From a bacterium (GTDB taxonomy: Bacteria > Patescibacteriota > Patescibacteriia > UBA9934 > GWF2-40-263), in contig JAJYIV010000002.1 of the NCBI GenBank assembly GCA_021789915.1, forward strand, positions 613 through 64,612: a stretch of DNA of 64,000 nt. Reading direction: 5' to 3'. Of this stretch, positions 10,886 to 59,522 are shown piece after piece. The notes beneath the pieces were generated by a model. That model worked only from the letters and a program-made list of their open reading frames with translations, was not told the origin of the DNA and searched no databases. A program made the translations under genes and the position numbers. The first letter of the stretch is position 1; every line of letters starts with the position of its first letter.

Positions 10886-10911
10886 AGCGGTAAGCCAACA
10901 GCCGTCAGCCG

Positions 10912-11280
10912 TCAGGGATTGGCCTTCGGCCTCGAAGAACACAAGACGTTCAACATACGCAAAACTTCATGCAAGAGACAGTCGGCTCGATCGTAATCGA
11001 GTGAACCGGTTCTCGGAAGCCGCCGAGCGATCGAGAGTTGCGTCTGAAGCTCGGCCGCCGAACCGTAAGCGATCGAGAGGAACCTGGCAAACTCATTGTC
11101 GTAGCCGCGCATCTTCCCTTCCGCGATATTCGATGGAATGGAAACCGCTGCTCGTCTCATTTGGCTTGTTAAACCGAATCGTTCGTCCGTCGGGAAAGAG
11201 TCGGTCAAGAGGTAAATCTCAAGGGAAAGATCCATGGCTTTTTGCCAGACAATGAGATCTTCGTATGGTCCTGTCGACAT
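10912..11280 (-). CDS. Four-helix-bundle protein (23S rRNA intervening-sequence protein family, TIGR02436-like)
   Basis: 122 aa: MSTGPYEDLIVWQKAMDL...IAEGKMRGYDNEF...AYGSAAELQTQL matches the conserved pattern of this family. ATG verified at 11278-11280. Lies in the C-terminal part of a long artefactual ORF. Confidence 0.8.
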   Translation of the reverse strand: MSTGPYEDLIVWQKAMDLSLEIYLLTDSFPTDERFGLTSQMRRAAVSIPSNIAEGKMRGYDNEFARFLSIAYGSAAELQTQLSIARRLPRTGSLDYDRADCLLHEVLRMLNVLCSSRPKANP

Positions 11281-11360
11281 ATTGGTTCGCATGGTTGGCG
11301 TCAAATACGCGAGACGCTCGTGCCTGATGGCTGATGGCTGACGGCTGACGGCCCGCCCCA

Positions 11361-12536
11361 TCACGCTATCTTCCGATGCTTCGAAATGTTCAGCACGACG
11401 CCGATCGCCGAGAGCAGCACCGCCAGCGACGTGCCGCCGTAGGAGACGAACGGCAGCGTAATGCCCGTCATCGGCATGATGGCGAGCATGGAACCGACGT
11501 TCACGAAGGCCTGCACGATGATCCACGCGGCGATGCCGACCACAACGTATTTCGAAAACGCGTCCGGCGCGCGCTTCGCCACCGTCAGCAGGCGCTGGAA
11601 CAGCAGGAGGAACAGGCCGATCAGGACCGCGCAGCCGATCAGGCCGAGCTCCTCGCCGATGACGGCGAAGATCGAGTCGCTGACGGCTTCCGGCAGGTAC
11701 TGGAATTTCTGGCGCGAATGGCCGTAGCCGAGCCCGAAGACGCCTCCGGAACCGATGGCCAAGAGCGCCTGGTTGACGTGATAGCCGATGCCCTGCGGAT
11801 CGAGCTGCGGGTTCAGGAACGTCATCAGGCGCGCGGCGCGGTACGGCGCGATCTTTATGAGCAGCGCCAGGCCGGAGGCGCCGGAAACCACCAGCCCCGC
11901 GATATACGGCAGCGGCGCGCCGGCGACGAAATACACCGCCAGGGCCTGCACGACGACGACGGACATCGTCCCGATGGCCGGTTGCGCGATCAGCAGGAGA
12001 AGGACGGCGCCGAGCGCGACGAGGAAGGGGACGAGGCCCGTGGAAAAACGGCGCATGCCGTCGGCGCCGCGGCGCTCGAGCCAGGCGGCGAGATAAAACA
12101 GAAAGGTCAGCTTGACGATTTCCGACGGCTGGAAGGAAAACCACGGACCGATGGAAATCCAGCTGTGCGCGCCGTTGATGTTGCCGGAGGAAATACCCGG
12201 GACGAAGACGAGCACGAGGAGTCCGAGCGAAGCCGCGAAGATCTTCATGGCGTGCCGGCGCCAGAACGTGTACGGCACGCGGCTGCACGCATACAGGCCG
12301 ATCAGCCCCGGCAGCAGGCCGAACACGAACTGGTGCTTGACGTAATAGGACGCGTCGCCGAACTGGTCGAGCCCCATGCCCGTGCCCGCCGACGCGAGCA
12401 TCAGCAATCCGAAAAGAAGGAGCGCCGCGACCAGGGCGAGCAGGACATAATCGACGCGATGAGGATCTTTCAGCGGCATGAGAACGGAAAGATGCTGAAC
12501 AGGCTCTTGGGCGTTGGCTAATGGCGAACGGCTCAT
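11361..12536 (-). CDS. ftsW: Peptidoglycan glycosyltransferase / lipid II flippase FtsW (SEDS family)
   Basis: 391 aa, about 10 TM segments, SEDS-like conserved blocks. True start may be downstream (MPLKDPH), because the first 12 codons overlap a TTAGCC-type repeat. Confidence 0.8.
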   Translation of the reverse strand: MSRSPLANAQEPVQHLSVLMPLKDPHRVDYVLLALVAALLLFGLLMLASAGTGMGLDQFGDASYYVKHQFVFGLLPGLIGLYACSRVPYTFWRRHAMKIFAASLGLLVLVFVPGISSGNINGAHSWISIGPWFSFQPSEIVKLTFLFYLAAWLERRGADGMRRFSTGLVPFLVALGAVLLLLIAQPAIGTMSVVVVQALAVYFVAGAPLPYIAGLVVSGASGLALLIKIAPYRAARLMTFLNPQLDPQGIGYHVNQALLAIGSGGVFGLGYGHSRQKFQYLPEAVSDSIFAVIGEELGLIGCAVLIGLFLLLFQRLLTVAKRAPDAFSKYVVVGIAAWIIVQAFVNVGSMLAIMPMTGITLPFVSYGGTSLAVLLSAIGVVLNISKHRKIA

Positions 12537-12543
12537 GACTTTT

Positions 12544-13602
12544 TCAAATCAGCGCGTCCAGCAGGGCAAGGGCGACGCCCAGCGCCGCGGCGACATACGC
12601 GACGACCCACAGGCGCATGACGATTTGCGGCTCCGGCCAGCCGCGCGCTTCCAAATGATGGTGGAACGGCGCGGACAGGAAGAGCTTGCGCTTGAACAGG
12701 CGCCGCCAGGCAAGCTGGAGCAGCACGGACAGCGATTCCAGCACGAACACGAATCCGATCACCGGCAACAGCAGGGCGGCGTTCGTCAGCATGGCGATGA
12801 CGCCCAGCGTGATGCCGAGCGACATGGATCCCGTATCGCCCATGAAGAAACGCGCCGGGTGGATGTTGAACCACAGGAAGGCGAGCAGGCCGCCGATGAC
12901 GGCGGCGCAGAAGACGGCCAAATCGTATTTGCCCTGCGCGAACGCGATCAAGGCGTAGGCGGCATAGGCGGGAAACAGGACGCCGCCGGCCAGGCCGTCC
13001 AGGCCGTCCGTCTCATTGACGGAGAAGGCCGTCGCGATGAGGACGGCCATGAAGACCGGCACGTACCACCAGCCGATGTCGAAGGTGCCGAAGAACGGCA
13101 CGTGCAGGATGCGCCAATCGAGCTTGACCGTGAACCACCAGGCGCCGACGGCGGCGATGGCCGCGTAAATGAGCAGGCGGTGGCGGGCGCGCAATCCGCC
13201 GCCATGCGCGCCGATGCGGCGGATGTTGAAATAATCGTCCACCAGGCCGACCAGCGCCGAGGCGACGAGGGCGCCGAGCGGCAGCAGCGTCTGCGCGCGC
13301 GTCAGGAAAGACAGCCGCGCGAACGCCGAATCCGGCAGCAGCCAGCCGAGCAGCGCGCACAGGAGGATCACGGCGAGCACCGTTCCCCACACGAGCAGCC
13401 CGCCCATGGTGGGCGTGCCCGCCTTCCTGGCATGCAGCCTGGCATAGACCGGCGTCTCTTCCGCCAGACGGATCGATTTGCCCATCTTGTGCGATTCCAG
13501 CCAATGCAGCAGCGCCGGCGCCCACAGGAACGCCAGCAGGAACGTAAGCGAGGCGATGACCAGAAGGCGGATCAGCTGGAAAGACGCGAGAGGGAGAGTC
13601 AT
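12544..13602 (-). CDS. mraY: Phospho-N-acetylmuramoyl-pentapeptide transferase
   Basis: 352 aa polytopic membrane protein. Conserved MraY blocks (DDxxD-type acidic motifs, NIHPARFFMGDTGS). Confidence 0.9.
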   Translation of the reverse strand: MTLPLASFQLIRLLVIASLTFLLAFLWAPALLHWLESHKMGKSIRLAEETPVYARLHARKAGTPTMGGLLVWGTVLAVILLCALLGWLLPDSAFARLSFLTRAQTLLPLGALVASALVGLVDDYFNIRRIGAHGGGLRARHRLLIYAAIAAVGAWWFTVKLDWRILHVPFFGTFDIGWWYVPVFMAVLIATAFSVNETDGLDGLAGGVLFPAYAAYALIAFAQGKYDLAVFCAAVIGGLLAFLWFNIHPARFFMGDTGSMSLGITLGVIAMLTNAALLLPVIGFVFVLESLSVLLQLAWRRLFKRKLFLSAPFHHHLEARGWPEPQIVMRLWVVAYVAAALGVALALLDALI

Positions 13603-58354: not shown

Positions 58355-58408
58355 AGGTTTCCTATATCGCGTGATCCTTCGACTTCGCTCGCCTTCGGCT
58401 CGCTGCGC

Positions 58409-58624
58409 TCAGGATGACACAGGGACGGGCTCTTCGTGAAGAGCCCCCCACCACGAGGCAAAGACGATCGCGGCGAGCAAAAACCAATGCACGGAAAAAT
58501 AATCCGAGACGAAGCCGGCGCGGATCGCGTCGCAGGCCCAGAAGACCGCGTATGAAACGATCGACGCGTAAAACCCGGTGCGGGCGACGGCTTGCTGGGC
58601 AGGGCTATCAAGGTGCAAGGTCAT
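58409..58624 (-). CDS. Small membrane protein (71 aa), translationally coupled (ATGA) to the upstream gene
   Basis: MTLHLDSPAQQAVARTGFYASIVSYAVFWAC...WFLLAAIVFASWWGALH. Two TM. Confidence 0.4.
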   Translation of the reverse strand: MTLHLDSPAQQAVARTGFYASIVSYAVFWACDAIRAGFVSDYFSVHWFLLAAIVFASWWGALHEEPVPVSS

Positions 58625-59460
58625 ACGTGCAGGAGCGTTTTCAGCGTGTCGGCAAGATTCGGCCGCGTCATCGTCACGTCCATGCGGTGGATGACGAAGG
58701 AAATTGGGGGCAGGGGGGGATTCGCCACGCCGGGCACCGACAGGACGATCTTCCATGCGCCGTTCTGCCGCAGGGCCGTCTTCGGGTTCACGGTGAACGT
58801 CGCAACCGTCCAGCCGTCCACCGTCCGCGGCGTCGCGTAGCGCGCGATCACGAAATCGATTCCCGCCGCGTCCAGATCCAAGCTCGGCAGCAGGCGCGAC
58901 GCGCCGGCGGGCAGCAAGCCGTCGTAGCGGTACTGCGCCATGCGGCTCCCCGCCGGCGGATGCGCGAGGAAATCCGCGATCGACGCGTACGTCGGCGTGC
59001 GCTGCAGCAGCACGAGGCCGTCCGCATCCAGCCGATGCCACGGCGAATCGTCGATCAGGGTGTTTTCCAGCGGTTGCAAATCATACTGCTCGTCCGGTCC
59101 TGGCTTCGTCAATGCGCCCGCCTCGACGATCGGCACGCCGGCATCCTTGAACCACACGTTGACCGTGACCGCGTCGAAGCGGCGCAGCGGATGCACGAAC
59201 GTGTATACCGGATCGCCGACGACGGCCTGCGCCGCAAGATTTCCCCCCTGCCAAGGGGGGAACGCCCGGCCCGGCTGGGCAAGGGGGGTCGGTGCCTGAA
59301 CGCGCTGGTCCGGCCGCAGCGGATCGACGAAGGCGCTGCGTTCTCCCGGCTCCCAGGAGACGCGGAACGTTCCCGTCGGCACGAGGAATTGCCAGCCCAA
59401 CCAGCCGAAGATCGCGATCGGCACGGCGATGATCAGGATTTGGAACGGACGTGGGGACAT
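58621..59460 (-). CDS. Membrane-anchored extracytoplasmic hypothetical protein (279 aa) with an in-frame palindromic element
   Basis: N-terminal TM ILIIAVPIAIFGWLGW. Element E9 (59242-59290) encodes LAQPGRAFPPWQGGNLAA in frame. Confidence 0.5.
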   Translation of the reverse strand: MSPRPFQILIIAVPIAIFGWLGWQFLVPTGTFRVSWEPGERSAFVDPLRPDQRVQAPTPLAQPGRAFPPWQGGNLAAQAVVGDPVYTFVHPLRRFDAVTVNVWFKDAGVPIVEAGALTKPGPDEQYDLQPLENTLIDDSPWHRLDADGLVLLQRTPTYASIADFLAHPPAGSRMAQYRYDGLLPAGASRLLPSLDLDAAGIDFVIARYATPRTVDGWTVATFTVNPKTALRQNGAWKIVLSVPGVANPPLPPISFVIHRMDVTMTRPNLADTLKTLLHV

Positions 59461-59465
59461 GGGAA

Positions 59466-59522
59466 GCGTTTAGCCATTAGCCGTTAGCCTTTAGCATGTG
59501 TCTCTCGCCTGACGGCTGACGG
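59466..59522. repeat. Inverted pair of heptamer tandem repeats (TTAGCCN / GGCTGAC) at a gene junction
   Basis: ttagccattagccgttagcctttagc ... ctgacggctgacggctaatggc. Confidence 0.55.

Follow-up and report, generated by a model that had tools for sequence, protein, structure and literature searches.

What are the tandem heptamers that fill gene junctions in a patescibacterial genome, and how did they come to lie there? The question is raised by a stretch of 64,000 nucleotides (contig JAJYIV010000002.1, assembly GCA_021789915.1; called the window below), which has a GC content of 65.6% and comes from a small-genome, 65% GC metagenome-assembled genome (MAG) of the Patescibacteria, or candidate phyla radiation (CPR). 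An earlier inspection of the letters alone (the sequence-only reading) had listed eight sites with arrays of a 7-mer related to TTAGCC. To our knowledge heptamer repeats, reportedly first seen in cyanobacteria in 1990, have no accepted origin or function, and we know of no functional characterisation since 1993 of the S23p 'intervening sequence protein' family. The window joins these two open questions: between two essential cell-wall genes, a heptamer stem has an S23p gene in its loop, and the link between gene family and repeats holds across loci.

An S23p gene enclosed by heptamer arrays

The gene map of the window combines public gene calls of identical contigs with a codon-usage caller. 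The spacer between ftsW (PF01098) and murG (PF03033/PF04101) proved to contain an open reading frame (ORF) for an S23p protein (Table 1) that is missing from the public gene calls and falls in a blank of the gene table of a near-identical contig (L123). The product matches Pfam PF05635 with an E-value of 1.5e-37 over profile positions 1-105 of 106 and, in a phmmer comparison, the X. campestris protein XCC0516 of PDB entry 2GSC with an E-value of 3.4e-25. The match to bAvd, a relative of S23p, is weak in Pfam (E 0.0013, below cut-off). The GC content of the ORF is 52%, as compared to 65.6% for the window. Close homologues are often found only on contigs of about 0.5-1.6 kb and the window protein itself is absent from the protein collection, where the best match has 78% identity, which is consistent with S23p genes being left uncalled or lying at assembly breaks.

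The ORF is enclosed by two heptamer arrays. Its TGA stop lies within a repeat unit of the downstream array, the final unit of which runs into the murG start codon (10883-10885). In the minimum free energy fold of the 486 nt from 10881 to 11366 the two arrays pair over about 35 bp (duplex −57.5 kcal/mol; z-score −4.2). The sequence-only reading had treated the arrays at 10888 and 11319 as separate sites; they are partners of each other across some 400 nt and a gene that had gone unnoticed. With an S23p gene enclosed by a heptamer-array stem, the ftsW-murG cassette is built like the intervening sequences (IVS) of bacterial rRNA. It is not an insertion in rRNA: it lies between two protein-coding genes, and a search of the window with Rfam gave no rRNA. 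The flanking unit, TCAGCC/GGCTGA, is of one family with the TTAGCC/GGCTAA unit dispersed over the window, where positions 59509-59524 also read GGCTGAC.

S23p genes and flanking arrays in other genomes

The association was examined in 27 PF05635 loci from CPR contigs, IMG/VR contigs, plasmids (Nostoc, Calothrix, Anabaena, Geminocystis, Riemerella and Gemmatirosa) and the Azospirillum 23S IVS, by scoring the complementarity of the 130 nt upstream to the 130 nt downstream of the gene. Complementary flanks with z of at least 3 were found for 19 of the 27 loci and 1 of 85 control genes (Fisher p 3e-14), and with z of at least 5 for 14 of 27 loci and none of the 85 controls (p 8e-11); the controls are few and drawn from three loci, namely the window and its two nearest relatives, and some of the S23p loci are related. 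Where arrays are clear the period is mostly 7, with 8-, 9- or 11-mers in a few loci. The unit varies by locus, yet it is complementary between both sides of the gene: CTAGGCN upstream and NGCCTAG downstream in CPR contigs, GTAGGGA and TCCCTAC in Nostoc, GGTGACA and CTGTCAC in Anabaena, GGTTTAA and AACCTTR in Riemerella, GTAGTCT and AGACTAC in one IMG/VR contig, and AACGTTG in another. In Azospirillum the S23p gene lies in a genuine 23S rRNA IVS with heptamer-built stems.

The CPR cassettes read directly as (CTAGGCN)3-4 ... GCCTAG-GCCTA-ATG. The S23p stop falls in the first downstream unit and the ATG of the host gene follows GCCTA, similar to the CTATG endings of four window junctions, which are in repeat register. 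Two contigs (L237 and L238) carry the same S23p gene with arrays that differ by one unit. On plasmids, PF05635 is nearly confined to taxa rich in heptamers, namely Nostoc, Calothrix, Riemerella and Gemmatirosa. Plasmid pNe_5 of Nostoc edaphicum, read over its first 50 kb, has two arrays only, too few to compare S23p flanks with solo units. No paper that generalises the link between S23p and heptamers was found in the literature. What is new here is that heptamer repeats are linked to the gene of an IVS protein and that IVS-like elements occur in operon junctions of a CPR genome. Such elements are not limited to rRNA genes, which matters for the annotation and interpretation of patescibacterial operons.

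Two gene contexts of S23p may be recorded. In several CPR lineages (L210-L217, L222-L225) the gene lies directly upstream of PrgI-like and TraC-like genes of a type-IV-secretion-like cluster, and on plasmid pANA02 of Anabaena sp. 90 (L257) the copy with GGTGACA/CTGTCAC flanks is part of a CRISPR-Cas locus, with cas6 on one side and cas4 on the other.

The heptamer arrays of the window

Arrays were detected with Tandem Repeats Finder (TRF) and a period scan of our own (array score at least 10). Period 7 is the sole over-represented repeat period, with 11 arrays in the period scan as compared to 0-4 for each of the periods 4-6 and 8-12. With at most one mismatch, TTAGCCNTTAGCC gives 17 two-unit matches in the window, against a mean of 0.04 over 100 dinucleotide shuffles. 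The units are TTAGCCN/GGCTAAN and the one-transition variant TCAGCCN/GGCTGAN, in which the seventh position is unconstrained. Within arrays 14-nt super-periods and neighbouring units of identical sequence occur, and these point to slippage.

All eight sites of the sequence-only reading indeed hold period-7 arrays, as judged by TRF, period scan and unit register, and their non-random placement at gene boundaries was confirmed: the exact hexamers TTAGCC/GGCTAA are intergenic in 17 of 17 cases, with spacers making up about 13% of the window. The distance from array to downstream ATG is 0-12 nt (murG 10885, rpmA 14761, pyrG 21864, the macB-like gene at 26861, 55757 and 59460) and from array to upstream stop 0-8 nt (stops 11361, 12544, 26950 and 55841; that at 59523 falls within a repeat unit). 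The flanking genes at these sites are all co-directional on the minus strand, and the array-bearing spacers are short, only 62-124 nt, and filled by the repeats. The arrays adjoin start and stop codons largely because they make up nearly the whole spacer, of 60-90 nt, between co-directional genes, so that a position exactly at junctions, as had been emphasised, largely restates that the junction spacers consist of these repeats.

Close inverted pairs were found at only three sites, 26868-26945, 55766-55836 and 59470-59530. For these the folding of the sense RNA is unusually stable (z −3.6, −5.0 and −5.1, respectively; 0/200 dinucleotide shuffles as stable). At 55758 and 26862 the outer pairing of the predicted helices joins the stop-codon region of one gene to the start-codon region of the next; at 55766-55836 CGUAGAA, which has the stop codon, pairs with UUCUAUG, which has the start codon. 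The gene at 59523-61409 has its TAG stop and last two codons inside the 59509-59530 array. All predicted stems, of 22-35 bp, are imperfect. The opposite-orientation partners and predicted imperfect hairpins with G-U pairs noted earlier hold for these three close pairs, and not for the arrays at 14773, 21872 and 12497, which are single and fold no better than shuffles; the 12497 array is moreover degenerate. Arrays with other units, at 40349-40392 and 46444-46590 and three within ORFs, were missing from the earlier list.

Table 1. Arrays, stems and related repeat features of the window (sequences of arms and arrays in sense orientation; Logan contig: that of SRR13170411)
Feature	Position	Strand	Unit or sequence	Remarks
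Junction ftsW-murG		−		475-nt spacer; encloses unannotated ORF
S23p (PF05635) ORF	10912-11292	−		intact, 126 aa; 23S-rRNA-intervening-sequence-protein family
5' arm of long-range stem	11319-11352	−	GCC GTCAGCC GTCAGCC ATCAGCC ATCAGGC	8 nt past ftsW stop (11361-11363); TRF period 7, 4.1 copies
3' arm of long-range stem	10886-10946	−	AGGCCGA AGGCCAA TCCCTGA CGGCTGA CGGCTGT TGGCTTA CCGCT-ATG
Junction mraY-ftsW		−		64-nt spacer
Degenerate single array	12497-12536	−	GCC each 7 nt, one clean TTAGCC	in mraY-ftsW spacer; fold z +0.3
Junction methyltransferase-rpmA		−
Single array	14773-14800	−	GGCTCAT GGCTAAA GGCTAAT GGCTAAA	11 nt 5' of rpmA (L27) ATG; TRF periods 7 and 14; fold z −0.7
Junction rplI-pyrG		−
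Single array	21872-21905	−	AGCTAAC GGCTAAC AGCTAAT GGCTAAC	5' of pyrG ATG (21864), 3' of terminator-like hairpin behind rplI; fold z −1.6
Junction between two macB-like permease paralogues		−		stop-to-start hairpin
3' arm	26868-26897	−		6 nt from ATG 26861
5' arm	26914-26945	−		4 nt past stop 26950-26952; loop 16 nt (26898-26913)
Junction epimerase-55320		−
3' arm	55766-55788	−	CCTAACGG CTAACGG CTAACGGC	8 nt from ATG 55757; identical in Logan contig
5' arm	55810-55836	−	AGCCATT AGCCATT AGCCTTT GGCTTT	4 nt past TAG 55841-55843; loop 21 nt
Junction 59523-58621		−
3' arm	59470-59495	−	GCTAAAG GCTAACG GCTAATG GCTAAAC	9 nt from ATG 59460; identical in Logan contig
5' arm	59509-59530	−	GCCATTA GCCGTCA GCCGTCA GG	loop 13 nt
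Different-unit array	40349-40392	−	CYACGTT; CCGTTCC CCGTCCC GCCGTTC TACGCTC TACGTTC CACGTTT	contacts rpmB ATG
Other-unit arrays	46444-46590		AGTCAGA x4, TGCCGAA x2.7, RAAACCT x3, one GGCTAAAGCCTAA	convergent-gene spacer
AACCCCTCCGCCTGCC-family copies	1509-1565, 15580-15646, 52561-52630, 53403-53456, 60805-60874, 62613-62653, 63800-63866

The check in independent assemblies that had been proposed finds the arrays in NCBI MAG, Logan and ENA contigs alike. Positions 45320-64000 of the window are identical to NCBI MAG contig DAHWTR010000006.1 (GCA_027328745.1) and 52598-60426 to a Logan contig of SRR13170411 (L002), and the ENA contig ERZ27233565 (L123) differs from positions 10200-24330 by four mismatches, with the five arrays covered being gap-free. 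Array indels among the three assemblies number zero; the assemblies are, however, 99.9-100% identical overall.

The gene next to the array at 40349-40392, rpmB (ribosomal protein L28; 40115-40348, minus strand; PF00830, E 1.9e-18), is uncalled by the codon-usage caller and outside the public gene tables. S23p genes and array-filled spacers are easily overlooked; the S23p ORF and rpmB of the window were both uncalled. The unit family of this array is also found beside start codons in a relative (L207). The arrays within ORFs are CTACCCA-like at 48277-48303 in an rmlD-like gene, GCTGGSG at 52179-52204 in a GT2 gene, and a perfect GCAGCTG x4 at 60138-60166 in the gene of a 628-aa protein without Pfam match.

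Junctions of relatives and distribution of the unit

Homologues of the CTP synthase (PyrG) of the window bear names of Patescibacteria, Uhrbacteria and Doudnabacteria, which places the host among high-GC CPR bacteria, and no relatives between 100% and 82% PyrG identity were found. Contigs at 82% and 79% PyrG identity are without TTAGCC arrays; one of them has ACGTTCC/GGAACGT arrays adjoining the pyrG and bipA start codons, a unit family also present at rpmB of the window. In 80 metagenomic loci with FtsW identities of 49-65% arrays per kb are about four times rarer than in the window. At the ftsW-murG junction one CPR relative (L167) has an ORF-less stop-to-start hairpin with the same unit as the window (TTAGCYN ... 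CTAACGG), another (L134) an ORF-less stop-to-start element with GTAGACY ... ACTAC, and a third (L186) a direct TAACAAT array contacting the ATG; other lineages have plain spacers of 5-40 nt. In L173, another CPR relative, the rplI-pyrG junction, which holds a solo array in the window, contains an S23p gene with TTTTAGG arrays on one side and CCTAAAA arrays on the other. From these comparisons, the position recurs and the unit sequence turns over, with gene-bearing and ORF-less forms sharing kinds of junction.

When 185,579 species genomes were scanned for (TTAGCCN)3, at least 120 stretches were obtained; with this lower bound and no control unit, the scan cannot be taken to show that TTAGCCN is special. 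The matches listed include Acidobacteriota, Gemmatimonadota, Cyanobacteriota, Bacteroidota, Desulfobacterota, Bacillota, Patescibacteria, an ANME-1 archaeon and others. In the 120 listed loci period 7 alone is over-represented, and many other units form complementary pairs. Relative to the nearest long ORFs, the 133 (TTAGCCN)≥3 arrays of these loci follow no usable orientation rule (stop/GGCTAA 56, start/GGCTAA 45, stop/TTAGCC 40, start/TTAGCC 31). A jackhmmer search of six-frame ORFs from about 1.9 Mb of loci found S23p only in L030 and L173 besides the window, which does not indicate a general enrichment of the gene next to TTAGCCN arrays.

Relation to known repeats and intervening sequences

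By their head-to-tail 7-nt unit, the excess of period 7 and the recurrence of the same unit at many intergenic sites, the arrays belong to a known but unexplained class, the heptanucleotide simple-sequence repeats (SSRs) of the type of the short tandemly repeated repetitive (STRR) sequences that Mazel et al. reportedly described in cyanobacteria in 1990. Like long heptanucleotide SSRs elsewhere, they combine a uniquely over-represented period 7 with intergenic location and several unit families per genome; unlike the STRR sequences, the window arrays are short (2-5 units) and organised as stop-to-start hairpins, in a small-genome, 65% GC host.

The view that this is not a described repeat class therefore cannot be maintained, as intergenic heptanucleotide repeats have been published, some ending 1 nt before start codons and some as inverted pairs (PMC4679880, PMC4692102, PMC2700814, bioRxiv 10.1101/2022.06.06.494920). 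Heptamers are the commonest long SSR class in many prokaryotes, and polymerase slippage has been proposed for their excess (Mrazek et al. 2007, as cited in PMC4679880 and PMC4692102). The TAACTGA repeats of Beggiatoaceae occur as 2-6 tandem heptamers in about 170 sets per genome with a patchy distribution across phyla, and are similar to the window arrays in being nearly all intergenic and mostly a few nt from a start codon without Shine-Dalgarno sequence (MacGregor 2015, PMC4679880). They differ in unit and in being nearly all direct (one indirect set) with a consistent forward orientation, whereas the window has TYAGCCN or its complement and the listed genomes show no orientation rule; a link to S23p is not reported there (PMC4679880). 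In Nostoc, heptamers adjoin start codons or extend over them (bioRxiv 10.1101/2022.06.06.494920). For Xanthomonas 186 arrays of GGGAATC are described, part of them inverted (Rehm et al. 2015, PMC4692102), and in Geobacter metallireducens families of heptanucleotides carry an annotation as regulator sites (PMC2700814). Both resemble the window in one dominant, dispersed intergenic heptamer with 1-2 variable positions and in some inverted pairs; they have about 50-190 sites, and their array length differs between close relatives. Their units are G-rich and were read as quadruplex-forming or regulator sites; TTAGCCN cannot form a G-quadruplex.

The closest counterparts of the ftsW-murG cassette are the S23p-bearing IVS in 23S rRNA of Coxiella burnetii, Leptospira and others, in which terminal inverted repeats form a long stem with a PF05635 ORF in its loop (PMC4990558). 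In Coxiella 3-4 tandem GACAGAT heptamers, in a strain-variable copy number, directly precede the ORF as in the window, and the first of these repeats is where RNase III cleaves the stem (PMC4990558). PF05635 ORFs also occur within rRNA insertions of CPR (bioRxiv 10.1101/2024.02.27.582315). The window element differs in its location outside helix 9/25/45 of 23S rRNA, and three further window elements are ORF-less with loops of only 13-21 nt. In the hmw1A gene of Haemophilus influenzae a transcribed heptamer array likewise forms one arm of a long hairpin directly 5' of a gene, and for the (ATCTTTC)n hairpin of this 5' untranslated region RNase III processing and an effect on expression were shown by experiment; unlike the window arrays, this is a single phase-variable locus with at least 10 repeats and a G-rich non-repeat partner arm (PMC12721329).

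Several other element types were compared and rejected. Repetitive extragenic palindromic (REP) sequences and bacterial interspersed mosaic elements (BIME), which were reportedly connected to a REP-associated tyrosine transposase (RAYT) gene by Nunvar in 2010 and Bertels and Rainey in 2011, share with the window short palindromic elements spread in operon spacers and a 'master' gene flanked by two inverted copies. The window arms are tandem heptamers instead of a unique 20-40-nt palindrome with GTAG head, no conserved palindrome with GTAG/CTAC head is present, and from copy to copy neither loops nor flanks are related. The product of the flanked gene is a four-helix bundle and not a Y1 transposase, and no transposase domain (including Y1/RAYT) was found among the window proteins in gene tables and Pfam. 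For miniature inverted-repeat transposable elements the arms are inverted as expected, but target-site duplications do not flank them and the loops of 13, 16 and 21 nt have no common core. Intrinsic terminators do not fit either, as a start codon comes 5-12 nt behind the 3' arms, without U tract (terminator-like hairpins are seen elsewhere, for example after rplI). Telomere-like repeats have another unit and the gene context is of the circular type, the constant-length spacers of CRISPR are absent, and the hexamers resemble promoters only weakly and on the wrong strand. An origin from tRNA or tmRNA was dropped as well. At the gathering threshold Rfam reports only tRNAs in the window and no match for the arrays.

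Possible origin and role of the paired arrays

The reading that we tentatively prefer, at a probability of about 0.45, is that the paired arrays represent intercistronic stems of an IVS-like kind, which slippage builds and resizes and RNase III cleaves; one has an S23p gene and three are ORF-less. Slipped-strand mispairing would have built lineage-specific heptanucleotide SSRs that now form most of several spacers; arrays of opposite orientation would form an imperfect stem of 22-35 bp, and the three short pairs would be ORF-less versions of the S23p-bearing element. We infer that the junctions are transcribed as part of a polycistronic RNA in which the stems fold and are cut by RNase III, a step proposed by analogy with the Coxiella IVS and H. 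influenzae hmw. Cleavage would free the S23p message and part the flanking cistrons, so that their stability and translation could be set independently. The single arrays may be half-elements or young arrays. Among the roles suggested by the sequence-only reading, mRNA processing is the only one for which outside support exists, from RNase III action at the Coxiella IVS (PMC4990558) and hmw (PMC12721329), and for the window it would hold by analogy.

Several observations speak against this interpretation. The seventh position is mostly non-complementary between the arms, which splits the stems into 6-bp blocks separated by mismatches. Antisense folds match the sense folds in stability and are better at two sites, which speaks against the sense RNA being under strong selection. 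At half of the sites the array is single and forms no stem, and an RNase III gene was not found in the 64-kb window. In L173 the solo hairpins use units unlike those that flank its S23p gene, so that solo and gene-bearing elements may not share an origin. Finally, in TTAGCCN loci of other phyla, among the matches listed, S23p is nearby once in about 900 kb.

A more far-reaching version, which we regard as rather doubtful, would make the heptamer arrays and the S23p pentamer two halves of one widespread system. The gene would travel or persist in an inverted-array stem, in rRNA genes and operon junctions alike, and its product or RNase III processing would seed or maintain ORF-less copies in a manner similar to RAYT and REP. 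The window would then hold one gene-bearing copy and several derived ones, and this would provide a function for a 30-year-old orphan protein family as well as an origin for bacterial heptamer repeats.

The alternative that survives best, though we judge it unlikely, is a neutral or selfish by-product without function, in which slippage arrays are tolerated only in spacers and the arms arise from template switching in quasi-palindromes. Such arrays would persist only in spacers because the repeat is not a multiple of three and has stops in every frame; read directly, each frame of (TTAGCCN)3 contains TAG and each frame of its complement TAA. The explanation of the heptamer excess by slippage is published (see above), and rapid turnover is apparent from the relatives at 79-82% PyrG identity without TTAGCC arrays, one with ACGTTCC at gene starts instead, and from ftsW-murG units that differ or are absent among CPR lineages. 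The unconstrained N position, the absence of an orientation rule in the 133 arrays and ordinary start-site accessibility are equally in line with neutrality. Less easily accommodated is the occurrence of one hexamer core at at least eight separate junctions in 64 kb, for which local slippage alone is insufficient. The short pairs are also far more stable than shuffles, and inverted arrays tied to one gene family across phyla would be unexpected under neutral slippage.

Somewhat less credible still, the arrays may be protein-binding sites, each heptamer offering one register to a single-strand binder, for which the candidates would be the S23p homopentamer itself, in a relation like that of RAYT genes to REP sequences, or a cold-shock/S1-type protein. 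Its binding would adjust how the neighbouring gene is translated or how stable the RNA of that gene is. S23p forms a pentameric toroid (Lin et al. 2006, as cited in PMC4990558), most S23p loci examined have inverted arrays as flanks, and in the window the flanking and dispersed units are of one family. In X. campestris one GGGAATC array out of 186 (#15) extends over the start of XCC0516 (PMC4692102), the S23p protein of PDB 2GSC. The near restriction of plasmid PF05635 genes to heptamer-rich taxa and the weak, below-cut-off match to bAvd may be added, as may the suggestion by MacGregor that cold-shock proteins (Csp), S1 or CsrA bind the TAACTGA repeats (PMC4679880). An S23p-based version is opposed by the finding that the Coxiella protein is apparently not produced in vivo (PMC4990558), and near most of the TTAGCCN arrays elsewhere in the listed loci there is no S23p gene. 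Both the window and L173 contain several unrelated units, and one protein could not read them all.

We consider it improbable that the arrays are translation signals, either replacing the Shine-Dalgarno sequence or coupling the translation of neighbouring genes by a stop-to-start hairpin. Direct heptamer arrays without Shine-Dalgarno sequence are proximal to the start of seven genes (murG, rpmA, pyrG, 26861, 55757, 59460 and rpmB); these array-adjacent genes lack GGAGG, which other window genes have. The pairing of stop- and start-codon regions at 55758 and 26862 and the CTATG endings, which recur after S23p cassettes in other CPR contigs, would fit such a role, as would the TAACTGA arrays of Beggiatoaceae that stop 1 nt before start codons (PMC4679880). 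The partition function, however, gives the array-adjacent genes an unpaired probability of 0.34-0.58 for positions −18 to +6, within the range of all genes. Orthologues in relatives manage without arrays, and no orientation preference exists across the listed genomes. The suggested role in start- or stop-codon context is accordingly not borne out by accessibility or by orientation. An assembly or binning artefact can practically be dismissed: short repeats are prone to mis-assembly and many PF05635 genes lie on very short contigs, but the NCBI, Logan and ENA contigs align gap-free over all covered arrays, which are shorter than a read.

Other repeats and RNA-like features

The window contains a second dispersed family of about 55-70 nt (AACCCCTCCGCCTGCC...GGCAGGC..CCTCCCCTTGG), with copies of 85-95% identity in ORFs and spacers. 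A perfect 27-bp tandem repeat of 3.7 copies (19235-19333) lies inside the ORF at 19052-19477 (minus strand, no Pfam match); near-identical L123 has 54 nt, or two copies, fewer, so that this repeat is polymorphic and in frame. A 91-nt repeat with 93% identity is found at 22626-22716 and 25181-25270, covering the 3' ends and downstream regions of the plus-strand ORFs 22539-22652 and 24740-25207.

Two elements of about 110-170 nt, at 13610-13720 and 24240-24410, have matching ends GAGACCyCTGAAAAAC ... TTTTGCAGAGGTC and paired inner hairpins with no Rfam match, and are possibly an undescribed structured RNA or a small mobile element. Their inner motif GATCAGCCTCTGGCTGA also occurs after ftsW in the CPR relative L173 (about 11150-11200). 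ARAGORN predicts a tRNA-Ala(ggc) of 94 nt at 40523-40616 (minus strand) inside the hflX-like GTPase gene 40471-41595; this call is without Rfam support and probably a false positive. The element at 24470-24545 (minus strand), called tRNA-Ala(agc) by ARAGORN, scores 39.8 bits with the Rfam tRNA model. It also matches the tmRNA model, but only at the two ends of the model (29.8 bits, below gathering), and could be either an odd tRNA or a tRNA-like domain of tmRNA type.

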